Assembly: GCA_964399335.1 (NCBI GenBank) | Contig: CAYNQI010000007.1 | Span: 1-45,469 of the forward strand | Direction of reading: 5' to 3' | Length of the DNA: 45,469 nt | Source: an uncultured Thermoplasmata archaeon | GTDB taxonomy: Archaea; Thermoplasmatota; Thermoplasmata; Halarchaeoplasmatales; Halarchaeoplasmataceae | Part shown: piece by piece, positions 1 through 31,886 of the stretch | How positions within the stretch are numbered: position 1 is the stretch's first letter | Layout of the letters: each line of letters begins with the position of its first letter | Notes under the pieces: generated by a model | Told to the model about the DNA's origin: nothing | Database searches by the model: none | Seen by the model: only the letters and a program-made list of their open reading frames with translations | Program-made: the position numbers and the translations under genes

Positions 1-646
1 TTTTTCCCCAACCTAACGAAAAAAGGCTGTAGTCGTCATGTACCCTATTAAATGGAATATTTCTCCTTTTAGCAGCCTCTAAAATAGTTTTAGTGCTCGG
101 TCCAAGTTTTCCTTCTTGGAATATGTGTTCAGCCTCATCAAGAATTAATTCAACCTCTTCTTCTAATACATCCACATCGGAGTCTTCTTGAATTAGTTGA
201 TTGAATAAATATATTGCCTCCGAGATCGATAATATCGCTAGATCTTCAACCTCATATTCCATGATTATGTTGTACAAACTACCATTTTCTCTTCTAGCTT
301 TTCCGAAATAAACCTTAGACCCTATGGTATTCTGGATAGATATCGCCATGTGTTCGATTATATGTGCTGGATATGTTCCTTCGTACAATCTCTCAACGAA
401 TCCTCCTTTTCGATTTTTTGAACAGGTATGTTCTTTCAATTCTGGAAGTAATGAAACTAACTTCTCTGCAAATTTAGCATTGGAAGGAAAATCTACTAAT
501 TCACCAAGATCTATTGTAACCTGTACCACTGGAAACATAGCGTGGATATTGGGTCCTCTGAAGAATCTTTTTTCAACTATTTCGACTTCATTTATCTTTT
601 CTTCATTTTGTGCGAAAGTTATCGCTCTTGTATTTGTTAAACTCAT
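1..646 (-). CDS. cphA: Cyanophycin synthetase (CphA1-like), N-terminal ~215 aa; truncated by the left window edge
   Basis: Not in the ORF track. My minus-strand translation from ATG 646 (RBS AGGTGAT upstream) stays open to base 1: MSLTNTRAITFAQNEEKINEVEIVEKRFFRGPNIHAMFPVVQVTIDLG...KEHTCSKNRKGGFVERLYEGTYPAHIIEHMAISIQ...VYFGKARR...LGPSTKTILEAAKRRNIPFNRVHDDYSLFSLGWGK. The RGPN, HxC..GGFxxR..EGT..HxxEH, FGxxR and LGPST..RxIP..LGxG motifs match the CphA N domain and the start of the ATP-grasp domain. Confidence 0.85.
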   Translation of the reverse strand, partial: MSLTNTRAITFAQNEEKINEVEIVEKRFFRGPNIHAMFPVVQVTIDLGELVDFPSNAKFAEKLVSLLPELKEHTCSKNRKGGFVERLYEGTYPAHIIEHMAISIQNTIGSKVYFGKARRENGSLYNIIMEYEVEDLAILSISEAIYLFNQLIQEDSDVDVLEEEVELILDEAEHIFQEGKLGPSTKTILEAAKRRNIPFNRVHDDYSLFSLGWGK

Positions 647-860
647 TTAGATCACCTTTTTAATCGTTGATTCTTCCTTGTTGTTAGATACCTCCCTCTA
701 TGGTGTGTATCTCATATCTGAAAGAATTAGTTAGAGGAATGCTATCAATTATATATAGCTATCGGTCGCATTATATATATCAGACAAAACTAAATATATT
801 ATAACACAGGTAATGTTATATGCAAAATTTTATATCTGTTTCCATTCTATTTTTTATTTG

Positions 861-1829
861 ATGAAAGGATTGTTTATTGGAAGGTTCCAACCGTTTCATA
901 ATGGCCATATGGCCGTTGTCGAGCAGATGACAGAGGAATGTGATTCCATCATCATAGGCGTAGGTAGTGCTCAGAAGGAGAGGGAGATAAACGATCCTTT
1001 GTCTGGGGGAGAACGTATAGAGATCATAAGAAAGGTATTAAAAAACAGGTCATCCATACCTTTTGAGGTCTACCCGATTCCGGACATAAATTGCTACCCA
1101 GCTTGGGTACATTATATCAAAGCTATACTTCCCAGATTTGATAGAGTCTATGCTAATTCATCCGTGGTAATTCGTCTTTTTGAAGAAACTAGGATCGAGA
1201 CCATTCAAGTCAAAGAAGTCAACCGAGATGAGTACTCCGGAACGGAGATAAGAAGAAGGATCGTAGAAGGTGAAGAATGGACACATCTAGTTCCAGAAGA
1301 GGTTGCTGAATATTTAGAGGTGATATATATGGAAGAAATGTTAAAACCAACTATTGGTATAAGTTCTGAAACTGAAAAAAAAGCTGCTCATTTATTGACG
1401 AAAAACAATTACACTATATCCACCGCAGAATCCTGTACAGGAGGTCTGATCGCACATAGATTGACAAATATACCGGGCTCTTCAATGTATTTCTTATCAG
1501 GTCTAGTTACTTACAGTAATGAAGCGAAGATCGAACATCTAGGTGTAGATAGAAGTGTTCTTCATGATAAAGGTGCTGTAAGTGCAGAAGTAGCCTCTCA
1601 GATGGCAGAAGGTGTTCGAAAAAAGATAGGCACCGATATAAGCTTAGCTACTTCAGGTATCGCTGGTCCCGGCGGTGGTACTGAGGAAAAACCAGTAGGT
1701 ACAGTTTATATGGCTTTAAGTGATAAAGAGGGAGTGCAATCAAAAAAATATCATTTTTCAGGTAATCGATGGGAAGTGAAAGAACAAACATCTGAAAAGG
1801 CGCTTCGATGGGTAATAGAATATTTTTAA
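861..1829 (+). CDS. NMN adenylyltransferase (NadM) fused to a CinA C-terminal/PncC NMN deamidase domain
   Basis: N half has GRFQPFHNGH (HxGH) and SGTEIRRRI. C half has TAESCTGG and SGIAGPGGG. The start is more likely ATG 861 (MKGLFIGRFQP) than 813. Confidence 0.9.
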   Translation: MKGLFIGRFQPFHNGHMAVVEQMTEECDSIIIGVGSAQKEREINDPLSGGERIEIIRKVLKNRSSIPFEVYPIPDINCYPAWVHYIKAILPRFDRVYANSSVVIRLFEETRIETIQVKEVNRDEYSGTEIRRRIVEGEEWTHLVPEEVAEYLEVIYMEEMLKPTIGISSETEKKAAHLLTKNNYTISTAESCTGGLIAHRLTNIPGSSMYFLSGLVTYSNEAKIEHLGVDRSVLHDKGAVSAEVASQMAEGVRKKIGTDISLATSGIAGPGGGTEEKPVGTVYMALSDKEGVQSKKYHFSGNRWEVKEQTSEKALRWVIEYF

Positions 1830-6402: not shown

Positions 6403-6531
6403 GTCGGGGTAGCTCAGCCTGGCGGAGCGCTAGACTCATAGGGAATGACAAAAGCGTTCCTATTAAAAAAGATGAACAGGTATTCTTCCTGGGAAATCTA
6501 GAGGTCGCGGGTTCAAACCCCGTCCCCGACA
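6403..6531 (+). tRNA. tRNA-Met(CAT), probably elongator, with a 55-nt intron at canonical position 37/38 (6441-6495)
   Basis: Acceptor stem GTCGGGG/CCCCGAC, D arm GCTC/GAGC, anticodon stem CTAGA/TCTAG, T loop TTCAAAC. A bulge-helix-bulge forms: CTCA/TGGG central helix, TAG and AAA bulges, outer helix GGAA/TTCC. No encoded CCA. Confidence 0.93.
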
Positions 6532-6647: not shown

Positions 6648-9600
6648 ATGGGTAATAAATTACGATATTCAGTAGTTCTTGTGACTTTGTTTATAGTTGT
6701 TGTAATGTTTTCTCCAGCAGTTTCTAGTTTTCATACTAATTCCCAGACAGATATTTTATTGGTATCGATCGAAAGGGAAAGTGATTTGTCGAATATAAAA
6801 TCGTTAGGGGGAGATGTACTAGCTAGATACCCGGATAGGGCTCTTATTAGGATGCCAACTAGGACTGAAAATCAATTAAGATCTGCAGGTATAACTATTG
6901 CGAGTACACTTCCTTCTAGGACCGAACTTTCCGTTAAAGGTCATACCTTCGATATAAATGAAAATATGCCGAATTTTCCAGAATCACTCACTATAGATGG
7001 ATACAGACCCGGTGAACAAGGAATATACTTGGTTCACATGTTAGGGCCCGTTTCATCGGAATGGAGAACATCTCTAGAATCCGAAAGCGTAGATATAATA
7101 AATTACGTTCCAAATTATGCTTATGAAGTGAGAATGACTCCGGAATTAGCGGAAAGAGTTGAAAATTTTGACTTCGTAGATTGGGTTGGAATATATCACC
7201 CTGGCTTCAAACTTCCTCAAAACATAGAACCAGGATATGTGATGGTCAATATGGTAGATGGCCGTAGATTAGTTACGGAAGTAGATGATAGGTCACAATT
7301 GGTCGAGATTGCGAATGATAACAATGTATACTACCTTTCTCAGTATCACGAACCTAAATTGTTGGACGAGATGGCTACCCAAATAATCGGTGGAGGGTTA
7401 TGGGTTTTAGATGATGACGATAACCCAGACACCGCATATCGAAAACATGGTGAGTATGGATCATTTGCTAATCAGATAGGATATCATGGTTCTGAATATG
7501 TCACTACTATCGCCGATTCTGGCCTTGGTAATGGAACAACACCTGACGCGGGTCATCCTGATTTTAAAGATAGAGTTGTTGGTGGATATGATTATCAAAG
7601 TGAATCATTTGAAGAAGGTGAATGGAACGATGGTAACGGTCACGGTACTCATTGTGCTGGATCCATAGGAGGTAATACTTACAACGGTACTGGAACCTTA
7701 TATTATGAGGACTATTATGCCTCACAAGGTTCTGCCCCGTCTACTAAATTTTTTGCTGTTAAAGTATTCAGCGATAGCGGTAATTGGATAGGTCCTACTG
7801 ATTACCACCATATCGTTGAAGTTGCTATGCAAAATACCAACACATATTTTCATTCTAACTCATGGGGTGGCGAGGGAGACGGTGCTTATACTTATTCTGA
7901 CGAGGACTACGATAGATCAGTTAGAGATGGTAATCGTGATTCAGATGAAAATGAACCTATAATCATAACTACTGCTGCAGGAAATAGTGGGCCAGGGACA
8001 GATGGTGGGGGATACAATTCGATATCTAGCCCTGGTAATGCAAAGAATGTTATCACCGTCGGTTCAGTTCAGAACTACAATCCAAACGTAGGTGTTTATG
8101 ATCCTGAGGCCGTTTCTTCTTTTAGCTCAAGGGGGTGGACCGATGATAATCGGGTAAAACCCGATTTGATGGCTCCTGGAGAGGGGATCCGTTCAACTGG
8201 CCCAGATGGCAATTATCTAACTAAATCAGGGACTTCTATGGCAACTCCTGCTGTTACAGGTGCAGCTAGTGTCGTAGTTGATTGGTATGAAAGTACTTAT
8301 GGAACAAGGCCAAATCCTTCGATGGTCAAAGCCCTGATGATAAATAATGCATATGATCTAGCAAATACTCAGGCGGATACTGGAGAAAATAGCCCCTATA
8401 TACCAAGCCAGGATCAAGGCTGGGGTATGGTGAATTTACCCACAATAGTCGACGCACCAGTGAATATGTTGTTAGAGGACGAAACATCACTACTTCAAAC
8501 CGGGCAAATAGATGAATATGAAATAGAATACGAAGACTCTTCCGTTCCACTTAATATCACTCTTACATGGACCGATGATAATGCTATGGCGGGTGATGAC
8601 CCAACATTAAAGAACGATCTCAACCTCGAACTGATTTCACCTAGTGGATTTGTGTTTAGAGGAAACAATCTTGTAGAAAGCTGGTCCGAACCAGGTGAGT
8701 CTACCTACAGCACTTTTGATACAAACGGTGATGGTTGGGACAACGTCAACAATGTTGAAAATATCAATCTTCATACGGATCTTATGGAGACCGGGACCTA
8801 CACTGTAAGGGTTATCGGTCATAATATCCCCTCAGATGCAAATAATGATGGTCTTCCTAATCAGGATTATTCTTTAGTCATGTACAATGCAGTGGAGTCC
8901 CCTACTGAACATAAACCCTTTCCACCTACTGACCCTGATCCATCAGATGGAGCGACAGGAATTCCAACTGAAATAGAGCTAAGTGTTTATGCGGAACATG
9001 AAGTCGATGATGATATGGATGTGTACTTCTACGATGCTTCTGATGACAGTTTGATCGGTACAGATAGCGATGTTACAAGTGGAAGTCGTGCTTATACATC
9101 GTGGGATGGTTTAGATAATGATAATACATACCAATGGTACACCGTTGCAGATGACGGTTCTCAGACTTCAATTTCAGATACTTGGAGTTTTACTACAGAG
9201 ATAGAAAATTTTACATTAACTATAAACTCATCTGAGGGAGGCCAAGTTACAGAACCTGGAGAAAGTATTTACGAATACAATTCTGGCGAGGTGGTTTACC
9301 TTGAAGCGGTGCCCGAAAATGACTATCTATTTTTAGAATGGATTGGAGCCAATGAAACTATAGAGGATACTAAGGACAATCAAACACATATCACCATAAA
9401 TTCCGATTATTCTATAAAGGCTGAATTCGAAGCTATCGAGGTCTCCGAAGTTTTTATTCATCCAGACGATAATCAAACCCTAGAAGCGGGAGAAGAGTTA
9501 GAGTTCGGAGCAGAGGCCTATGATCAATACGGCAATATGATCACCGATGATCTAGACGATTTTCAATGGCAGAATGCCGATTCAGGTGTTTTCTATGAAG

Positions 9601-11012
9601 TTGCTACTGGTGGGTATGATGTGAGTGCAACTTATGATGGTGTAAAGTCAAATACTATATATGTTACGGTAGAACCATCTGAAGCTGTAGGGATAGATAT
9701 ATCACCAGACCCAACTAATATAATTGCAGGAGATTCACAGGAATATATCGCAACTGCATTTGATAAGTGGGGTAACGAATTTGATGTAACTGAGAATATA
9801 GTTTGGTCCGATGATGTTGAACCTTCAGAGGGTTCTCAATGGGAAAAAAATATCATCGCGGTCGAGGTGGCTGGTAAATGGGATGTTACAGGTGAATATG
9901 AAAATTTAACTGGAAAAATTTTGACTGATGCTGTGGAGTTGATAGTCGAGCATAATGATGTAAATTATGTGGAGGTATTTCCTGGCGAGGATTTTTTTAC
10001 AAAAGCGGGAGAAGAAATAATGTTCCAGGCGAAAGCCTATGACGAGTATGATAATCTGATAACAAAAAGGCAGGAAGATTTTGATTGGATTAATGCAGAA
10101 AACGGTTTTTTTTACAAAACCATCATAGGTGAATACAATGTAAGCGCAGTTTACAATGGGGTTACTTCAAACGTAACAACTATATTTGTAGAACCGGGGT
10201 CGGTTGATATTGTCGAAATAAACCCTGTTGAGGATAAAACAGTTTTATCAGGAACCGAATTGAATTTTACTGCCAAAGCTTATGACGAATATAATAATCT
10301 GATAACAAACGATGTGAAAGATTTTACCTGGAGTAACATCTCAGAGTTAGATAACCATAGAAATGCAGCGGTTTTTTATGAAAAATCAAAAGGAGATTAT
10401 CACGTAAAAGCTACGTATGAAAATGTAAGTTCAACTGTTGCTAGGATTACCGTGACCCCATTTAGTTTGACTATTGAGTCTACAACTGGAGGTTATGCTA
10501 TAGAACCAGATGAAGGTACGTCAGAATTTGAGTATGGGACCGTTGTCGACCTTAAGGCAAAAGCGGATGACGGGTATCATTTTCTAAGATGGAGTGGCGA
10601 TAATACTACCATAGATGATGTGGCAATTAACCAGACTACTATAAAGATTCTAGATAATTACAGTATAGAAGTCCAGTTCAAAATTAATACTTACACATTA
10701 GAGATATCGTCGACTACTGGAGGAACTGTTGTAGAACCTGGTGAGGGGAAATTTGAGTATGAATATGGGACAGTGGTAAATTTAGAGGCTTTAGCGGATG
10801 ATGGTTATAAATTCGTTAATTGGACTAGTAGTGAAACAAATGGCGAAGAAACTATGAGCTTACTTATCGATGGAGATAAGGAGATCAGGGCTAACTTTGA
10901 TGAGGATGAAGAAAGAGATGGCATATCGGGCTTATTAGCAGTTCTCGCATTACTCGGTGCAATTACAGCGATTGTCATCTACATCATCTATAAAAGAAGA
11001 TATAGCAAATAA
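6648..11012 (+). CDS. Large secreted, C-terminally anchored S8 (subtilisin-like) serine protease
   Basis: Signal peptide and prodomain, then the catalytic triad TIADSG / HGTHCAG / GTSMATP and oxyanion AAGNSG. A Kp43-like beta domain (ITLTWTD, NNVENI), a fibronectin-like unit, repeats and a C-terminal TM helix with basic tail follow. Confidence 0.93.
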   Translation: MGNKLRYSVVLVTLFIVVVMFSPAVSSFHTNSQTDILLVSIERESDLSNIKSLGGDVLARYPDRALIRMPTRTENQLRSAGITIASTLPSRTELSVKGHTFDINENMPNFPESLTIDGYRPGEQGIYLVHMLGPVSSEWRTSLESESVDIINYVPNYAYEVRMTPELAERVENFDFVDWVGIYHPGFKLPQNIEPGYVMVNMVDGRRLVTEVDDRSQLVEIANDNNVYYLSQYHEPKLLDEMATQIIGGGLWVLDDDDNPDTAYRKHGEYGSFANQIGYHGSEYVTTIADSGLGNGTTPDAGHPDFKDRVVGGYDYQSESFEEGEWNDGNGHGTHCAGSIGGNTYNGTGTLYYEDYYASQGSAPSTKFFAVKVFSDSGNWIGPTDYHHIVEVAMQNTNTYFHSNSWGGEGDGAYTYSDEDYDRSVRDGNRDSDENEPIIITTAAGNSGPGTDGGGYNSISSPGNAKNVITVGSVQNYNPNVGVYDPEAVSSFSSRGWTDDNRVKPDLMAPGEGIRSTGPDGNYLTKSGTSMATPAVTGAASVVVDWYESTYGTRPNPSMVKALMINNAYDLANTQADTGENSPYIPSQDQGWGMVNLPTIVDAPVNMLLEDETSLLQTGQIDEYEIEYEDSSVPLNITLTWTDDNAMAGDDPTLKNDLNLELISPSGFVFRGNNLVESWSEPGESTYSTFDTNGDGWDNVNNVENINLHTDLMETGTYTVRVIGHNIPSDANNDGLPNQDYSLVMYNAVESPTEHKPFPPTDPDPSDGATGIPTEIELSVYAEHEVDDDMDVYFYDASDDSLIGTDSDVTSGSRAYTSWDGLDNDNTYQWYTVADDGSQTSISDTWSFTTEIENFTLTINSSEGGQVTEPGESIYEYNSGEVVYLEAVPENDYLFLEWIGANETIEDTKDNQTHITINSDYSIKAEFEAIEVSEVFIHPDDNQTLEAGEELEFGAEAYDQYGNMITDDLDDFQWQNADSGVFYEVATGGYDVSATYDGVKSNTIYVTVEPSEAVGIDISPDPTNIIAGDSQEYIATAFDKWGNEFDVTENIVWSDDVEPSEGSQWEKNIIAVEVAGKWDVTGEYENLTGKILTDAVELIVEHNDVNYVEVFPGEDFFTKAGEEIMFQAKAYDEYDNLITKRQEDFDWINAENGFFYKTIIGEYNVSAVYNGVTSNVTTIFVEPGSVDIVEINPVEDKTVLSGTELNFTAKAYDEYNNLITNDVKDFTWSNISELDNHRNAAVFYEKSKGDYHVKATYENVSSTVARITVTPFSLTIESTTGGYAIEPDEGTSEFEYGTVVDLKAKADDGYHFLRWSGDNTTIDDVAINQTTIKILDNYSIEVQFKINTYTLEISSTTGGTVVEPGEGKFEYEYGTVVNLEALADDGYKFVNWTSSETNGEETMSLLIDGDKEIRANFDEDEERDGISGLLAVLALLGAITAIVIYIIYKRRYSK
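9205..10900 (+). repeat. Protein-level repeats in the protease stalk: three InlB-B/Listeria-Bacteroides-like units and three to four Ig-like units
   Basis: LTIxSxxGG..EP.EG..EYxxGxVVxLEA..D.Y.F..W occurs near 9205, 10460 and 10690. A(E/K)AYD(Q/E)YxNxIT..DFxW..G.Y.V.A.Y..V.S occurs near 9510, 10030 and 10270. Boundaries approximate. Confidence 0.8.
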
Positions 11013-13168: not shown

Positions 13169-13307
13169 CTTACCAACTTCAAATAAAATCATTCTTTTAT
13201 ATCTTTTACTCATGAACTAATCAAAACTCAAATATCGGGCAAACTCTTTTATATCTTAGTAAATCTACATGGGATATATACCAAATTGTTTCCCCATGGT
13301 GAAAAAC

Positions 13308-16300
13308 ATGTATAAGAGCGAAAAGCAACTTTCGAAAATTTTGAGCTTGACGATATTATTTTTGCTTGTGACTGGTATACTTGTTCCGGTTATGAGTGAA
13401 ACAAAAGGATACGGTTCACATCCTGAAATTGACGCAGAGGAAGCTACCGATGATATTGAACCTTTTTCAGATGACGAATGGCTAATTACAGAAACTGTGT
13501 ATGTGAACAGTTCTAGACAGATCGATAGTCATATAACTATAACAGGTGAAGGTGAATTAATTATAAACGATTCTACCTTGACTTTATTGATAGATGAATA
13601 TCATCCTTGGAAAATTGAGATACTGGATGGTGGAAGACTTGAATTATGGAACAGCGTAATAACCACTAAATTAAGGAACGATGGTGATGTATTAAGACCA
13701 TATCTTAAAACCAATATATCAGCTCAAAACGGATCTGAAATTTTGATGGAAGAAAACTCAGAATTTAAATTCCCCGGTTGGGTATTCATAGAAAATTCTG
13801 ATTTTACCATGAGGAAATCATCTTTTGAGAGTTTAGATGAAGTTCCAGATTATGATGGGATAGAGGAGAAAAATAATGATGACTGTCCTAGATTTACAGC
13901 ACTGAATGGTTCATCTATACTGATAGAAGATTCCGAGATAAATGATTACTATAGTTTTAGTAGAGATGGTGATGATAAAATGGTTTGGAGGACCTTTGAA
14001 GATAATTTAGAAACTGAAGAAGGAGAATACGTGTTAGGACCTAATAAAACACTCGAAATTGATGAATGGTATCTAGACGACGCCGATTTCCCGTTTGGAG
14101 TTCATGATTATATCGATCCTTATAACCGGATCAGCGCATTAGCAATAGAGATAACATATTCTACTGAAGATAACTATACAGTATCAAGTCCTTTGAATTA
14201 TTCTGTAAACGATGAATGGAAAGAGGCTTTGATCATTGGACCCCAGGGTACTGAAGAAACCTTTTCTAGTGATATTTGGGAACTTGATTTAGATAGCTTC
14301 TATAGGGGCGAAGAAAATTATCTCAAAGATCTAAGTATCAATCTTACAAATCAGGAGATCTCTGATAATAATAATAAGAGCATTATCATAAGTGAAATAA
14401 ATTTAGTTTCGGAATACAATAATGACATCTATATAAGGGATTCTGAGATGACTGTGATCAACAGTCATATAGACGTAGATTATAATGCAGCCCAACCTGA
14501 TCCAACCGATGACGACTCAATCACAACTGATGAAACTTGGATGCAGGATGCCAACCTTGAACGCAGGGCTATACGGTTGATCGATTCAGATTTTAGATCC
14601 TATGGGGTTTACCCTCAAGATGAATGGTCCCCTGACGGAGATCCATTCTTGATCGCTGATGAAAATTCTGAAAACAGAACATGGTACTATCGATGGGTGA
14701 CCGTAACAGCCCTTGATAGTGCTGGTACTCCTCTTCCGGAAACAAATATAAACATCACTTTAGATGAAAGTTTAAAAGACTTATCAGAGGCACTTTACGA
14801 TAATGTAGATGAACGAAATGATCTAACTGATAATTTAAAAGCATGGGATTATTTTAATAGAACTGGAAAAGGTTATTATGATCACGAAAATAACACATTC
14901 ATTACAGGTGAGGACGGACAAGTCACTTTATTTTTGATAAGTGACAGAGTAAATCATCCACAGGACTGGCCAAATACAAGAAGCGTGGGAGACTATTTCA
15001 TCGAGGGGAAACATGAGGAAGTAGAAACAGCTGATGGGGAGATCAACCTTGAAAACTTCCCTAACATGAATGAAACTGCTACTTTCCACGATTATGATCT
15101 AATATTTGATGAGGAGATCCCTCTACCGGACTTCAACATTACAGAAGATGATTTTAGAATTCTTAAAGACGGAATAGAAGTTAGTTTTGTTACAAGAGGC
15201 ACTGAATTAGAATTGGAAGCTACTGTGAGTAATACCGGAAGAAAGGATGCAGTAGGCAACATAGAATTGGTATTTTATTCTTATTTTGAAGATGAACCTG
15301 AATCTGTAATCGTAGAAACCGAAGATCTTGATGGGCTTGAAGCGAATGAAAGTAAAACAAGGTCTGTGTTCTTGGATACTACCGAGATGGATTTGGGAGA
15401 TTATTTAATTGGCGCTCATGTTGATCCATACGATGATTATGATGAATTGAACACAGATAACAATTTTGCAGATAAAGAGATAACACTCTCTGATAAAGCA
15501 AATCTACAGCCATTTGAATTAGCTGCTGATCCTGCAGATACGATAACAGACGGTGAAGATATATCATTCTATGCAGGAATAGAGAACATCGGTGGTACTG
15601 ATGCACATGATGTAACCGTATCTTTTTATTATGAAGACGGAGAGACCCTTATCGGCAGCGATACTATAGAGGAGATACCCGGGAATGATTCTATCCGATA
15701 CACTGAATTGGTACTTTGGGAGGACTATCCAGGTCCGGGTGAATATAATGTAACTGTAGTCGTTGATCCTGATAACGATATAGACGAAGTCGACACTACC
15801 AATAATGAATTATGGGGAACCTTTACGATACTGAGCACGGCTGAATTATTTATCGATCTTCGGGTAGAACCTGATGATTTATACGAAGATGAAACAGTAG
15901 ATATCACGGGTACAATCAATAATACTGGAGAAACAATTTCATCGGATATAGATGTATATTTTTATTTAGATGAAGGCACAGAATATGAGGATCTTATACA
16001 TTCAGAATTCGTTCCAGGTATTGAGGGAGGTGACACCGTCACCTTTGATTACCAATGGACTGCTGAGATGGTCAGTGGTGAATTGAGTGAAACCCGCACT
16101 ATTTCTATGATCATAGAACCCGAAGATGAAGGACAGATCGAAGAACCTAGAAAGGATGTACCCATAGATCTCATGAAACCTGCTCATATCTCTTTAGTTG
16201 AAGATGATATATCATTCGATGATGAATTATCGGAAATAGGAAAGATGCTTAACATAAGCGCAGAGGTATGGAATTCGGGTGGTGCTGAAGCCACTGTAGA

Positions 16301-19211
16301 TGTATCGTTCTACGATGGTTTCCCCGGAGAAGATAGTTTGATAGACGCCGAAGCTGATTTGGAGATAGACCCTGATTCACATGTGATTGTGGAAGTAGAA
16401 TGGACCCCTGAAACCAGAGGAAATCGTGATATTCATGTGATCGTAGAACATGGAGACGAGATCATCCAAGCCGTAGTTACTAAACCTATCTTCAGCGTAG
16501 ATTATAGTGAAGATCTGATTATAGGTGGTGAAGGATTTCCGGAGTATGAACAGATATCAGTGGGACGGGATATAGGTGGTTTTGTTTTAGTTCAGGATTC
16601 AGGAGTTCTTGAGATAGTCGGTCCAAACGCGGGTATCGAACTGGTGATGAATCAAGACAATAGATACAATGTTATTGTACAAGATCAAGGGTCATTGAAG
16701 ATCGAGAATGGGCAATTAAGTTCAGACCATAATTTCAATCTTAATCTAGAAGATGAATCCGAGTTAGTTTTAGGAGATAATAGTGTTGTCTCTGATACAG
16801 TGAATCTAAATGCTAGAGATAACTCCCAAGTAAGTATATCTCATACTACATTCCACGGGTCTATGGATATCACCTCTGATGTTTTCTACAGTGAAGGAAG
16901 TGAGTTCACCTCTCAAGATGTAATGTTAAATCCATCGTATGTTGATATGACTAACAGCACGTTCGAAGTCGATTTAGTTCATTTCCATGATACCGAAGGC
17001 AGTTTGACATGGGTCGAAACTGGAGCGATCCAAGCGACTGGTGATTCTGAGATCCAGTTATATAGATGGGTTAAAGCTACAGCACTCAGTCGTACCAGAT
17101 TAACAATCCAAGGAGCTGAAGTGACTGCTGAGAATCTACAAACGGATTATACGGTTACTGGTATAACCGACAGCGATGGAGTTGCTACTTTAAGAGTGCT
17201 TACTGATATAATTACAAAGGATGGAGCCTCGATCAGAAACTCCTATCGATTTAGTGCTAGCTATGTTCCTGAAGGTACAGATGACGAATATGAAGTTGAA
17301 TTCCAGGAGAGTTTACCACGTTATAACAGTCAAGAATATATTATCGAATTAGATATGCACTTAGAAGACCTTGCTATACCTGATCTAAGTATAAGTCAAG
17401 AAGATATCTATGCTGATAGAGATGAAATCAGTATAAATGAAGAGGTTTGGATATTTGCAGATATTGAGAATGTTGGTGAAACGGAAGCAGAAGGAGTTGA
17501 TGTATACTTTTATATCGATCAAACAGATGAGTTAATAGGTGTCGATAATTTAGATTCAGTTCCTACTGAAGGTTACTCTACTGCGAGTGTGACTTGGACT
17601 GCTGAGATGACCGATGAAACCATGGCTACCGAGGATATCGATATCAGAGTTTGGATAGATCCTGATGTTGAACCTATACAGGATCCGAATTTGGCTAACA
17701 ATGAAGCTGTGACTACATTAACAGTTAGATCTCCTCCGATTACTGAGTTTGACTCAGATATAATACTATGGAGAGACGGAACTCAGCTTACCGAGGAGGA
17801 CCAAATAGTAGAAAGGGACGATCTAATAATCAATATAAGACTTACAAACATAGGCGGTTCAGACCTGGTGGATGGGACTTTGAACATTTCAATATCCGGC
17901 GATGAACTTATCAAAGATAATGTTAGCATAGAAAGCGGTGACGTTCTAAATTATACATACGAATGGAACGTCAGGATGCGCGGTCAACAGAACATTCAGG
18001 TATGGTATAATTCATCAGCTATAGATCCAGCTTCTAGTTCATATACCAATAGAACCATAAACATAGCAAATATGGATCTCGAATTTACTGGTGTTTCTTT
18101 ACTTGAAACTGAACCGGGTGCAGATAAGGTAATACAAGGGACTTTAGTTAGAGGAGATGGTACAGGCATATCAGGCATAGATATACACGCTTATTTGATA
18201 GACGAAGATGGTCAGATCGCTCAAGATGCTACGATCACATCTGGTGATGGTGGAGACTTTATCATGGAGATACCGGAACCTGCTAGAGAAGGCAGATACA
18301 GCCTAAGTCTCGAAGCTGATTACCCGGATGCTGAGAGAATACCCACAGGCCAGAGTATCGAGGTCGGAGAGCCTGTTGAAACAGGTATTCCACTATGGAT
18401 GATAATAGCGGTAATAGGTGCTATCGCCGGCGGAAGCGTCGGAGGTATATTTGCATACATGAAGATCAAAGGACCTGGAGAATGGGTAGAATGTGGTAAC
18501 TGTGGTACTACCATACCGTCGGATGTTCAAGAATGTCCGGAATGTGGTGTAGAATTTGAAACTGAAAAAGTGAAATGCAGTGAATGTGGAGAATGGATAC
18601 CATATGACTCAGATGAATGTCCAAATTGTGGTTCTCAATTCATAAAAACAGGTGAAGAGGTACAAGATTACGAGGAAACTATGAAACAACAATATGAAAA
18701 TTATGTGGAGAAATATAAGTCTAAAGCAAAAGTAGAGCTTGGAGAAGAGTTTACAGAGGAAGAATTCATGGACTGGTGGCAGGAACAACCATCTTACATA
18801 ACCTTCGATGAATGGCTTGAGAGAGAAGAAGCTAGAAGAAAAGAAGGTGGAATAGAGTGTCCCGAGTGCGGTGCATTGAATAGTGTTGATGATGCTATCT
18901 GTCAGAAATGTGGTAGCACTTTGATCACTTTGGATGAGGATATGGATGAAGAGGACATCGATGTCGATCTTGAAGAAACTGAAGCTTCATTAGATCTCGA
19001 AGTAGAAACAGACGAAGAATTCGACGAAGATTTATCAGATGAACCTGACGATGAGTTCGAAGAAGAGGATCCTGAAGAAGAGGAACCTGAAGAAGAGGAA
19101 TCACAGGATAAACAAAAGAAGAAAGTAGTTGCGAAGAAAGTCAAGAAAAAACCAAAGAAAGTAGTGAAGAAGAAGGTCAAAAAGAAAGCCAAGAAAAAAG
19201 AGGATGAATAA
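13308..19211 (+). CDS. Giant (~1970 aa) acidic single-pass surface protein: beta-rich repeats and CARDB domains outside; zinc ribbons and a charged tail inside
   Basis: Signal peptide; several CARDB units (VDPYDDYDELNTDNN, VDPDNDIDEVDTTNN, IDPDVEPIQDPNLANNE); TM helix near 18390-18460; three CxxC-x10-CxxC ribbons; D/E run; Lys-rich end. Start at ATG 13308 after a GGTGA RBS. Confidence 0.85.
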   Translation: MYKSEKQLSKILSLTILFLLVTGILVPVMSETKGYGSHPEIDAEEATDDIEPFSDDEWLITETVYVNSSRQIDSHITITGEGELIINDSTLTLLIDEYHPWKIEILDGGRLELWNSVITTKLRNDGDVLRPYLKTNISAQNGSEILMEENSEFKFPGWVFIENSDFTMRKSSFESLDEVPDYDGIEEKNNDDCPRFTALNGSSILIEDSEINDYYSFSRDGDDKMVWRTFEDNLETEEGEYVLGPNKTLEIDEWYLDDADFPFGVHDYIDPYNRISALAIEITYSTEDNYTVSSPLNYSVNDEWKEALIIGPQGTEETFSSDIWELDLDSFYRGEENYLKDLSINLTNQEISDNNNKSIIISEINLVSEYNNDIYIRDSEMTVINSHIDVDYNAAQPDPTDDDSITTDETWMQDANLERRAIRLIDSDFRSYGVYPQDEWSPDGDPFLIADENSENRTWYYRWVTVTALDSAGTPLPETNINITLDESLKDLSEALYDNVDERNDLTDNLKAWDYFNRTGKGYYDHENNTFITGEDGQVTLFLISDRVNHPQDWPNTRSVGDYFIEGKHEEVETADGEINLENFPNMNETATFHDYDLIFDEEIPLPDFNITEDDFRILKDGIEVSFVTRGTELELEATVSNTGRKDAVGNIELVFYSYFEDEPESVIVETEDLDGLEANESKTRSVFLDTTEMDLGDYLIGAHVDPYDDYDELNTDNNFADKEITLSDKANLQPFELAADPADTITDGEDISFYAGIENIGGTDAHDVTVSFYYEDGETLIGSDTIEEIPGNDSIRYTELVLWEDYPGPGEYNVTVVVDPDNDIDEVDTTNNELWGTFTILSTAELFIDLRVEPDDLYEDETVDITGTINNTGETISSDIDVYFYLDEGTEYEDLIHSEFVPGIEGGDTVTFDYQWTAEMVSGELSETRTISMIIEPEDEGQIEEPRKDVPIDLMKPAHISLVEDDISFDDELSEIGKMLNISAEVWNSGGAEATVDVSFYDGFPGEDSLIDAEADLEIDPDSHVIVEVEWTPETRGNRDIHVIVEHGDEIIQAVVTKPIFSVDYSEDLIIGGEGFPEYEQISVGRDIGGFVLVQDSGVLEIVGPNAGIELVMNQDNRYNVIVQDQGSLKIENGQLSSDHNFNLNLEDESELVLGDNSVVSDTVNLNARDNSQVSISHTTFHGSMDITSDVFYSEGSEFTSQDVMLNPSYVDMTNSTFEVDLVHFHDTEGSLTWVETGAIQATGDSEIQLYRWVKATALSRTRLTIQGAEVTAENLQTDYTVTGITDSDGVATLRVLTDIITKDGASIRNSYRFSASYVPEGTDDEYEVEFQESLPRYNSQEYIIELDMHLEDLAIPDLSISQEDIYADRDEISINEEVWIFADIENVGETEAEGVDVYFYIDQTDELIGVDNLDSVPTEGYSTASVTWTAEMTDETMATEDIDIRVWIDPDVEPIQDPNLANNEAVTTLTVRSPPITEFDSDIILWRDGTQLTEEDQIVERDDLIINIRLTNIGGSDLVDGTLNISISGDELIKDNVSIESGDVLNYTYEWNVRMRGQQNIQVWYNSSAIDPASSSYTNRTINIANMDLEFTGVSLLETEPGADKVIQGTLVRGDGTGISGIDIHAYLIDEDGQIAQDATITSGDGGDFIMEIPEPAREGRYSLSLEADYPDAERIPTGQSIEVGEPVETGIPLWMIIAVIGAIAGGSVGGIFAYMKIKGPGEWVECGNCGTTIPSDVQECPECGVEFETEKVKCSECGEWIPYDSDECPNCGSQFIKTGEEVQDYEETMKQQYENYVEKYKSKAKVELGEEFTEEEFMDWWQEQPSYITFDEWLEREEARRKEGGIECPECGALNSVDDAICQKCGSTLITLDEDMDEEDIDVDLEETEASLDLEVETDEEFDEDLSDEPDDEFEEEDPEEEEPEEEESQDKQKKKVVAKKVKKKPKKVVKKKVKKKAKKKEDE

Positions 19212-28821: not shown

Positions 28822-28988
28822 AGTTTGATAAGTTTAAAATGGATATATTATGTTTTTCCCATCTCTAGATTTGACAATTTTCTGAAATTTGCACTGTTTT
28901 GTTTAAAAAATTATTTATACCTCCCTTTATCATGAGTGCGGTAATTCAACCATTAGATGACATAATGGTCATTATGGAGGAACCATAC

Positions 28989-31886
28989 ATGAGAAAGAAA
29001 ACAGTAGGCAAAATCGCTACCGCTCTGGTAATACTTAGCTTAGTATTATCTGGGCTGATGGTACTGCAATTTAGTGCGCGAGCAGATGAACGACATGAAG
29101 GTAGAGTAGAAGGAATAATCTCTACAGATGACGGAATAATTCCTCGCGGTTTAGAAGTAAATCTCATAGACCTTTCAGAAAGTATAGTATCTTCCACTGA
29201 GACTCGTAGAGGGGGATATTACCAGTTTAAAGGTGTAGATGCGGGTTATTATCGGGTGGAGTTCCCTTCACAATCACATAAGGAACAGAATGTTTATTTC
29301 ATGGAAAGAAGTGGGATCGATGAAGTAAAAACGGAGACCACGACAGAATTTGATTTAACCGTAGAAAGAAAACCGTTAGAATACAGCGTCGAAGGATATG
29401 TTCGTGATGCTGCAGAAGATCCTGTTGAAGGAACTGAGATAACGGTCAGCGATTTGAACAGTGATTACTCTAAAACAGTAGGTCTTCATAACGAAACTAC
29501 TGGGGAATACAACGTAAAAATCTATGAAGGTAATTTCACAATAACCGCAACAGCACCGGATTATTCAGATATCATGCATGAAGTGGATGTTGAAGAAGAT
29601 ATCACTGACTTCAACATAACTCTTACTGATGTTACCGACACCCATCTCGTAACCGGGTATTTATGGTCCGAAGATGGAGCTGTTAATACACAATTGAGAG
29701 TTACGCTGATTCATGAGGAATTAGGAATCTTCAACAAACAAATAGAAGAGGGTCCTTATTTTGAGATCGCTGCTCCTAGAGCTGGGAATTATCATCTTCT
29801 AATAGATTCGGACGGTTATCTACCTCATCATCAGGAATTAAATGTGGAGAATATTGTGAATATAGGCAGAACAAGTGCGGTAGAACGAAGTCGAGATGAA
29901 ATCATCGAAACTAAGATGGAATTTGATGAGAACTGGGATGAATTGACCATAACCCGAGAAAGGACTTATCAACCAGATACTATGATTCAGAGTTTACCTT
30001 ATTCGAATTTGGGACTTTTAGCTCTTCAGATCGACTTAGCCTATGGCGACGGAAATCTGGAATTAGATAGTAATGAGCTTCAGAATTTCCAAGATGAATT
30101 ACAATATATAGAATCGAACATACCTTCCTCTCATCGATTGATCCAAGTAGATGGCGTGTCTTATGAGCTAGTCGATATAGAAAAATTCGATCTAGAATTG
30201 CCAGAATTGAATGGAGAATCGATAAGCGTTTTCAATCTATTCGATGAGATGACATCTACTTCCACAGCAACTTATGAACCGGTAGAAGATATCGATGTAG
30301 AAGATAGTCATGATATCGACTTATATCTAGAACAAGACCACATAGTAGGCAACTTCAGGGATTATTCTTATGAGCTAGATCTACCTAATGGATACGAGAG
30401 AACTAATTTCCCAACCAATGTAGATATAAGTGGTTTCACAACTGTATCTATAGATACCTACGAGGGTGTTGGTAGGACCCACGTTGGTTTAGATATTCAA
30501 CAGACTGAGCAGGGCGAAGTGAATATCATACTAGAAGAAGGTCCAAGAGTTTACTTGAAAGAGATCGAGGAAAACGATGAACTTATAACAGAGTATATCG
30601 TCAGACAGGATACTAACGTTACATGTATAGCGGATTTCGTTGATCCAGTAGGAAGTGAAGAAGATGCAGAATACACTTGGTATCTTTATCTTGACGGTGA
30701 TGAAGATGAAATAGGTACTGGGGAGGAGATAAATCATGTTTTCACTAATACTGGTGAGAGAACGCTTAAAGTAGAAGTTTTTGAAACTGGTGGCCACATA
30801 ACTACAGATGAGGTAACCGTTTTTGTAGATGGAAGAGCACCTCAAGGTGTAATTGATGGTGACTTCGAGGGCAATGAAAGCGAAGAATTAACTTTCAGTG
30901 CTTATGGATTCACAGATGACTCAGGTGAGATCGGTTATTATCAATGGAACTTCACAGATGGATCTGATCCAGTAGAAGGTCCGGATATGTACAATGTGAC
31001 ACACGCATTTGATTTATATGGTACTTATAACGTAAAACTAAACATCACTGATGTTGTTGGAAACTGGGAGATATACGAACGGGAAATAGTTGTTCACGAT
31101 GTTACACCTCCTGTTCCGTTGTTCAACCTTACTTATCAGACAGAAGACGAAGAAAATATTACCATCCACAGTGATGATCTTGCTGGAGATAGGATAGAAC
31201 GAAGGTATCCGATCACATTAGATGCATCGGAATCCTACGATCCTGCAGGGTTCGACGAAGAAGTAGGTGAAGTAGAATCTTTTACTTGGTGGATAGAAGA
31301 AGATGGTTTCAAACACGAAGATGTGGTGCTAGAAGATTATGAATTCGATGATATTGGAGAATATACAATCAGTTTGAACGTAACCGATGAACACGGAAAC
31401 TACGAAAACATCACTAGGACTGTAAGGATAGCACTTGGACCTACACCTGATCTTGAGTTGAGCAATCTAAGAGTATCTGGTGAAAAAAGTGTCAACGAGG
31501 AACTTACAGTATCCGTCAACGTGACGAACTGGGGAGAACGTGTAGCTGAGGATATCCGCTTAGAATTCTCTGTCGATGGTGAAGATGTACCTATTGCAGA
31601 CATGACATTTGAGAAAGACGGCGAAGAAACGAATGAAACTATCGATCCAAATGAAATGAAAACAATATCTTTCAAATGGACACCTGAAGAAGACGGTGAT
31701 ATGACTCTAAGTGTAACGATCTATGACGGTGAAGAACCTGAGGAATTACGTGTTGATAACACTTTAGAACTTGATATAAACATAGAACCACCAGCATGGC
31801 GCAGGTACATAGTGTACGCATTGGTACCGATAGTCATAATCGGTGTAACTGTAGGATTATACTTCTACAAAGAAAAGTACCAGTAA
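28989..31886 (+). CDS. Secreted, C-terminally anchored surface protein with carboxypeptidase-regulatory-like, PKD and CARDB domains
   Basis: Signal peptide after a GGAGG RBS (ATG 28989), PKD motifs (YQWNFTDG, HAFDLYGTYNVKLNITD), CARDB (PDLELSNL...VNVTNWG), C-terminal TM helix. Confidence 0.85.
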   Translation: MRKKTVGKIATALVILSLVLSGLMVLQFSARADERHEGRVEGIISTDDGIIPRGLEVNLIDLSESIVSSTETRRGGYYQFKGVDAGYYRVEFPSQSHKEQNVYFMERSGIDEVKTETTTEFDLTVERKPLEYSVEGYVRDAAEDPVEGTEITVSDLNSDYSKTVGLHNETTGEYNVKIYEGNFTITATAPDYSDIMHEVDVEEDITDFNITLTDVTDTHLVTGYLWSEDGAVNTQLRVTLIHEELGIFNKQIEEGPYFEIAAPRAGNYHLLIDSDGYLPHHQELNVENIVNIGRTSAVERSRDEIIETKMEFDENWDELTITRERTYQPDTMIQSLPYSNLGLLALQIDLAYGDGNLELDSNELQNFQDELQYIESNIPSSHRLIQVDGVSYELVDIEKFDLELPELNGESISVFNLFDEMTSTSTATYEPVEDIDVEDSHDIDLYLEQDHIVGNFRDYSYELDLPNGYERTNFPTNVDISGFTTVSIDTYEGVGRTHVGLDIQQTEQGEVNIILEEGPRVYLKEIEENDELITEYIVRQDTNVTCIADFVDPVGSEEDAEYTWYLYLDGDEDEIGTGEEINHVFTNTGERTLKVEVFETGGHITTDEVTVFVDGRAPQGVIDGDFEGNESEELTFSAYGFTDDSGEIGYYQWNFTDGSDPVEGPDMYNVTHAFDLYGTYNVKLNITDVVGNWEIYEREIVVHDVTPPVPLFNLTYQTEDEENITIHSDDLAGDRIERRYPITLDASESYDPAGFDEEVGEVESFTWWIEEDGFKHEDVVLEDYEFDDIGEYTISLNVTDEHGNYENITRTVRIALGPTPDLELSNLRVSGEKSVNEELTVSVNVTNWGERVAEDIRLEFSVDGEDVPIADMTFEKDGEETNETIDPNEMKTISFKWTPEEDGDMTLSVTIYDGEEPEELRVDNTLELDINIEPPAWRRYIVYALVPIVIIGVTVGLYFYKEKYQ

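Follow-up and report, generated by a model that had tools for sequence, protein, structure and literature searches.

The left end of the window (the whole stretch of DNA analysed, 45,469 nucleotides) very probably holds the start of a functional chromosomal cphA1, a gene for cyanophycin synthetase, of a halo(alkali)philic Thermoplasmata archaeon of salt lakes, similar to Candidatus Saliniplasma. The gene fragment occupies positions 2-646 of the minus strand, and the assembly breaks off after its codon 215. As judged from profile matches and alignments, the part present covers a complete N domain and ~40 residues at the beginning of the ATP-grasp domain; the enzyme is of the CphA1 type, and for it we infer enzyme activity, an Asp/Arg product, primer independence and a storage role. 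The features at this end of the window were as follows.

2..646 (-): 5' part of the cphA paralogue 'A1', codons 1-215, defined by the open reading frame, PF18921, TIGR02068 and identity to the full-length protein P0001

2..118 (-): residues 177-215 (GPST, RNIP, LGWG), which span the N-G linker and the beginning of the ATP-grasp (G) domain, by alignment to residues ~160-200 of SuCphA1, the CphA1 of Synechocystis sp. UTEX2470

188..520 (-): CphA N-domain core, residues 43-153, by profile match to PF18921

350..430 (-): N-domain metal/hydrolytic site, codons for H73, C75, F83, R86, H95, E98 and H99, by alignment to 7LG5

650..657 (-): Shine-Dalgarno-like AGGTGATC, ending 3 bases before the ATG at 646-644, read from the sequence

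647..860 (no strand assigned): AT-rich intergenic region separating the divergent genes cphA and nadM-pncC and presumed to hold the promoters of both

861..1829 (+): archaeal NMN adenylyltransferase fused to PncC/CinA, a neighbour outside the cyanophycin system that served as synteny anchor

In the list of open reading frames, the minus-strand frame at 2-646 begins with an ATG and runs for 215 codons, open up to the left contig end. We take AGGTGATC upstream of it to act as a Shine-Dalgarno sequence, presumably through its complementarity to the 3' end of archaeal 16S rRNA. The 215-aa translation matched Pfam PF18921 over residues 43-153 (E = 1.1e-32; 112.9 bits, cut-off 27) and the NCBIfam equivalog TIGR02068 at E = 9e-55, with a score of 186 bits on the latter against a cut-off of 850 for a fragment that contains only model positions 1-190 of 862. 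At columns that were at least 95% conserved among bacterial-side CphA sequences, the N domain up to residue 176 kept 19 of 21 and the linker and start of the G domain (residues 177-215) kept all 11, and the window part overall was unchanged at 30 of 32. The initial annotation had read a CphA N-domain frame on this strand from the strings HTC, GGFVER, EGT, HIIEH, LGPST, RNIP and LGWG, and all of them were present in the translation; it was also correct, for the window, in placing nadM-pncC divergent from cphA. The NMN adenylyltransferase model aligned only from residue 17 of the frame at 813-1829 (+), and the probable start of nadM-pncC was therefore set at the ATG at 861.

The N-domain site of the window protein could be matched residue by residue with that of SuCphA1: H73, C75, F83, R86, H95, E98 and H99 correspond to SuCphA1 H57, C59, F67, R70, H79, E82 and H83. 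The spacing of the Cx19HxxEH motif was exact, with C75 at 422-424, H95 at 362-364, E98 at 353-355, H99 at 350-352 and the HIIEH string spanning 350-364, and the earlier reading of an intact Cys/His/His/Glu site was borne out by the complete motif together with the equivalents of H57, F67 and R70. In SuCphA1 the site contains a metal, tentatively assigned as Zn, with C59, H79 and H83 as its ligands and E82 as general base (Sharon et al. 2022, PMC9262961). Mutants at H57, C59, R70, H79 or E82 lost primer-independent synthesis and retained primed synthesis, and Cx19HxxEH is complete in 83% of non-redundant (nr70) CphA1s, where it marks the primer-independent majority (PMC9262961). The changes that we observed in the window protein were peripheral to the site: the second-shell residue E87, which in SuCphA1 hydrogen-bonds and orients H83, was replaced by Ser; E90, a polymer contact, by Asn; and R100, whose mutation to Ala had little effect, by Lys (SuCphA1 data from PMC9262961). 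Because the E87 position was Ser or Ala in almost all members of archaeal clade A (described below) in a family-wide comparison, we regard this substitution as a clade signature and not as decay.

The rest of the enzyme could be followed in P0001, a 908-aa protein from a 9.5-kb contig of an ENA metagenome assembly, which was 100% identical to the window protein over all 215 residues. P0001 scored 971.7 bits on TIGR02068, above the equivalog cut-off of 850, and orthologues in four related MAGs scored 957-978 bits against the same cut-off. Residues 24-873 of P0001 aligned with SuCphA1 7LG5 at E = 8e-184, its identity to a cyanobacterial CphA1 was 39% over 862 aa, and both P0001 and the orthologue from a sister genome (L012) carried PF18921, ATP-grasp, Mur_ligase_M and Mur_ligase_C in one chain. 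Among the positions that lie outside the window, P0001 keeps R323, N394, S396 and R458 (contexts RRIP, NISTGG and PGLRMH), which bind the substrate aspartate in the CphA G domain (Miyakawa et al. 2022, PMC9427784), as well as the P-loop Lys of the M domain (K499, context GTNGKT). Highly conserved columns were kept at 46 of 46 positions in the M domain, 55 of 68 in the G domain and 19 of 21 in the N domain, and the G-domain changes at conserved columns included D to N at 419 and 452. With these G-domain substitutions and those at E87 and E90, rates or specificity could differ from those of bacterial CphA.

Because only 215 of ~908 codons are present in the MAG, we infer the intactness of A1 from P0001, with its identical N-terminus, and from the orthologues. 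The remaining ~693 codons of this copy were found on none of the 212 MAG contigs, a k-mer comparison gave no contig that overlaps the left end of the window's contig, and an exact 45-base search of JGI metagenome contigs with the first bases of the window gave no match. In the sister genome, cphA is followed by ~7.5 kb with trx, GAPDH, purB and a band-7 gene, all of which are missing as a block from the MAG, while Topo VI B, which lies downstream of them in the sister genome, reappears on MAG contig C45; this block-wise loss points to an assembly gap, not a deletion. The initial annotation had left the ATP-grasp and Mur domains to be looked for beyond the contig end, and they are full-length in the protein with the identical N-terminus and in the orthologues. 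No frameshift was found either: the frame stays open to the contig end, and the junction with nadM-pncC is reproduced in independent assemblies.

The surroundings of the fragment were archaeal. The 45-kb contig carries the PolD small subunit, aRF1, S3Ae, an archaeal-type AlaRS, SerRS and the NMN adenylyltransferase, and the MAG (1.57 Mb in 212 contigs, 80% complete) groups in one genus with a Candidatus Saliniplasma MAG within the Halarchaeoplasmatales, Thermoplasmata; the core genes and this grouping agree with the initial annotation's view of the host as a probably halophilic archaeon. The fragment had a GC content of 0.355 and a GC3 of 0.29, similar to those of neighbouring genes. Its 215 codons gave dN/dS values of 0.10-0.13 against the four orthologues; A1 is under purifying selection. 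The nadM-pncC/cphA junction was collinear at the DNA level with that of the sister genome (81-84% identity) and with that of the Candidatus Saliniplasma MAG (L013; 78% over 6.6 kb), nadM-pncC lying directly upstream of the orthologous cphA in both. The full-length cphA of the sister genome is 90% identical to the window copy and lies between nadM-pncC on one side and thioredoxin, archaeal GAPDH, purB and Topo VI B on the other.

Three cphA genes are present in the MAG, all of them either truncated at a contig end or spread over several contigs; one small (~2 Mb) archaeal genome holds three synthetase paralogues of two clades. Contigs C20 (18769-19702), C204 and C111 overlap by exact 55-mers and join into an uninterrupted second cphA of 890 codons (A2), which is followed by a convergent cyanophycinase gene, cphB, at C111:74-913 (-), encoding 279 aa. 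The cyanophycinase scored 198 bits on TIGR02069 (cut-off 126.6) and has the GTSAG serine motif; its catalytic domain starts right at the N-terminus, with no signal-peptide-like segment in front, and by sequence it appears to be of the intracellular type. The earlier statement that no cyanophycinase lies upstream of the fragment thus holds within the window but not for the genome, where cphB sits on another contig. The joined contigs also hold an aldehyde:ferredoxin-oxidoreductase-like open reading frame. The third cphA is represented by its first 410 codons at C89:3-1229 (-), where the contig ends, and its motif is intact including E87. A search of the genome for enzymes that might split beta-Asp-Arg gave an IaaA-like Asparaginase_2 protein on C18 (192.9 bits, cut-off 27) with the GDTVG autoprocessing motif; IadA was searched for in the genome and not found.

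The three paralogues differ in the N-domain site. The window copy and the C89 copy both keep the full Cx19HxxEH, whereas A2 has lost the site: the Cys region is deleted, GGF is changed to DDN, R70 to Ile, E82 to Gln and H83 to Tyr. The conserved G- and M-domain columns of A2 are largely intact. Its orthologue in the sister species (L022) is likewise degenerate, whereas all four motif residues are still present in the A2 orthologues of two further genomes of the genus; the loss is common only to the sister species and is therefore recent. By analogy with the primer-dependent, motif-less enzyme of Tatumella, A2 should need primers, and these could come from the window enzyme, the third copy or CphB. 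The pairing of a cphB-linked paralogue without the N-domain site and a window copy with it is the new detail in this genome. Tandem cphA pairs were also seen in other Thermoplasmatota (L039, G292:C8:16000-22200, and L040, G188:C15:9500-15900). In the former the second copy is without the N-domain motif and has Y, G and E at the positions of H79, E82 and H83, and in the latter the second copy, within a frame of 984 aa, matches the M-domain half alone.

Strong cphA matches were found in 38 of the 43 species genomes of the Halarchaeoplasmatales, at 1-4 matches per genome, and matches over the equivalog cut-off in 30 of the 43; cphB was over its cut-off in 38 of 43, usually adjacent to a cphA. In an even sample of the Thermoplasmatota (401 genomes), 42 genomes belonging to 24 of 162 genera had a cphA match at E <= 1e-100, and no cphA was found in four archaeal control genomes. 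Trees were built with FastTree from 137 sequences and with IQ-TREE from 51; both are unrooted, and the bacterial sampling is biased, having been collected by similarity to the window protein. Both trees drew two archaeal groups, A and B, separated by bacterial sequences. Clade A (SH-aLRT 100) holds A1 and A2 and is apparently archaea-only, its named members all being Thermoplasmatota except one record labelled Aenigmatarchaeota. Clade B (SH-aLRT 94) holds the C89 copy together with seven other families of the Thermoplasmatota and adjoins sequences of Acidobacteriota and Gemmatimonadales. Two independent acquisitions, as drawn by the maximum-likelihood trees, are not claimed, since a single archaeal clade was not rejected by the AU test (p = 0.115). 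The Aenigmatarchaeota record (P0013, labelled 'Candidatus Aenigmatarchaeota archaeon') nests in the Halarchaeoplasmatales part of clade A beside the copy of a same-family genome; this placement suggests either mis-binning of the contig or a transfer to a DPANN genome.

From homology with CphA1 enzymes of known structure, the ATP-grasp G domain would extend the growing chain with Asp at its C-terminus, and the Mur-ligase-like M domain would attach Arg to the side chain of Asp. The N domain is encoded wholly inside the window; it would hold the polymer, and its Cys-His-His metal site with the Glu general base would slowly cut existing polymer into primers; with this primer-generating site, the window copy should be primer-independent. 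With three cphA genes, a CphB and an IaaA-like peptidase, the organism may build, depolymerise and fully hydrolyse cyanophycin, and the presence of these genes in one genome makes both the synthesis and the full breakdown of the polymer plausible. Cyanophycin would then plausibly serve as an internal nitrogen/carbon reserve of the organism. The order is listed (as Haloplasmatales) among salt-in extreme halophiles in one preprint (10.1101/2023.07.03.547478). A wider scheme, in which a cyanophycin reserve is common to the salt-in Halarchaeoplasmatales, A1 starts chains that A2 only elongates, and the polymer behaves unlike bacterial granules in a cytoplasm of molar salt, is put forward tentatively and we consider it rather doubtful.

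The fragment's position at the extreme end of a MAG contig and a family best known from bacteria could also suggest a contaminating bacterial sequence or a chimeric join at this end, and an archaeon without cphA. The same junction, however, occurs in independent MAGs from other samples, the GC3 agrees with that of neighbouring genes, the nearest relatives are all Thermoplasmatota, 38 of the order's 43 genomes have cphA, and the archaeal sequences form clades of their own in the maximum-likelihood tree, unlike recent bacterial imports. Contamination, a chimera and a recent import were accordingly ruled out by synteny, composition and lineage distribution, and we give a contaminated or chimeric contig end practically no credence. 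It is improbable, though less so, that in the MAG the window copy survives only as a truncated remnant or a pseudogene and that only its paralogues are functional. That reading would account for the ~693 codons found on no MAG contig, and a same-genus genome of 95% completeness (G044) is without a copy of the A1 type, so A1 can be lost. Against it stand a frame without interruption as far as the contig end, the retention of 30 of 32 highly conserved columns, a dN/dS of ~0.10, a full-length protein with an identical N-terminus in the ENA assembly, and a missing block of ~7.5 kb that fits an assembly gap in an 80% complete MAG of 212 contigs.

A start of an intact cphA1 could still encode a true CphA-family ligase that makes a modified or soluble product or has a role other than granule storage, for instance with a different amino acid on the side chain, with short soluble chains, or with a part in balancing charge or osmotic conditions in a cytoplasm of high salt. 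Clade A forms a deep, distinct group (SH-aLRT 100), shows clade-wide changes at conserved positions (E87 to S/A; in the G domain A222G, A436S, D379G/N and D419N), and contains proteins more acidic than those of the bacterial side (median pI 4.97 vs 5.70); moreover, the genomes keep 1-4 paralogues. In spite of these differences, the 46 highly conserved columns of the M domain, which cover the Arg-adding site, are all unchanged and the substrate-Asp residues are kept. The co-conservation of an equivalog-level cyanophycinase, usually beside cphA, is understandable only for a product with a beta-Asp-Arg-type backbone. We therefore consider a different product or role unlikely, though of the three alternatives it is the one that deserves most weight, and prefer the reading of the fragment as the start of a functional cyanophycin synthetase gene.

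Judged by its sequence, the enzyme is an ordinary CphA1, and its points of interest are the domain of life in which it occurs, the order-wide, multi-copy conservation together with cphB, and the loss of the primer-generating site in one paralogue. Reviews and surveys treat cyanophycin as a polymer of bacteria, the large surveys of gene co-occurrence were confined to bacterial genomes, and a preprint on the phylogenomics of the Mur family states that CphA is specific to bacteria. Our literature search for archaeal CphA found none, the only paper found on archaea and cyanophycin being that on Culexarchaeia (PMC9723716), in line with the initial annotation's remark that the polymer is not established in archaea. 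The novelty that the initial annotation attached to the gene was nevertheless set too high: archaeal cphA genes are numerous and already annotated automatically, the NCBI pipeline naming several archaeal relatives 'cyanophycin synthetase'. The synthetase is present in about a tenth of the sampled Thermoplasmatota genomes, and in the order under study it is no stray import: it is under purifying selection, often multi-copy, accompanied by a cyanophycinase and found in nearly every genome. If the polymer is made, a polyamide nitrogen store would be added to archaeal physiology, salt-adapted, acidic CphA variants would become available for biotechnology, and a primer-generating and a primer-dependent enzyme would form a natural pair in one cell.

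Elsewhere in the window, an Rfam tRNA match (51.8 bits) at 6403-6531 (+) spans 129 bases, more than an uninterrupted tRNA would occupy; ARAGORN found no tRNA in the window, and the match is probably an intron-bearing archaeal tRNA. Three large surface proteins are predicted.

6648-11012 (+): predicted surface protein, a 1454-aa subtilase with InlB B-repeats

13269-19211 (+): predicted surface protein, a CARDB-repeat protein of 1980 aa with zinc ribbons at its end

28899-31886 (+): predicted surface protein, a 995-aa PKD/CARDB/CarboxypepD_reg protein

Among characterized synthetases, the closest model for the window copy is the primer-independent SuCphA1 (PDB 7LG5, 7LGJ, 7LGQ, 7TXU). P0001 has the same N-G-M architecture and has the Asp-binding residues of the G domain and the M-domain P-loop in common with it, and the window copy has the same complete Cx19HxxEH plus H57, F67 and R70. 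Unlike SuCphA1, the protein described here has an archaeal host, belongs to a separate clade with ~39% identity to cyanobacterial CphA1, carries a 21-residue N-terminal extension and is more acidic (pI 4.8). The primer-dependent TmCphA1 of Tatumella morbirosei (PDB 7LGM), which is without all four motif residues, is a model for A2, in which C59 is lost, E82 has become Q and H83 has become Y; the window copy, with its motif intact, is of the opposite type.

At the level of the genome, the nearest comparison is with the bacterial cphA-cphB sets, which may include iaaA, iadA or cphZ (Sharon et al. 2023, PMC10206079, PMC9974463). The archaeal genome likewise has a synthetase, a cyanophycinase and an IaaA-type peptidase, and adjacency of cphA and cphB is common in the Halarchaeoplasmatales as it is in the bacterial sets; unlike in those sets, the window copy is not clustered with cphB, and there are three paralogues from two clades. 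The report of a cyanophycinase in Culexarchaeia (PMC9723716) concerns the degradation of external cyanophycin only, whereas in the lineage described here a synthetase is present and conserved.
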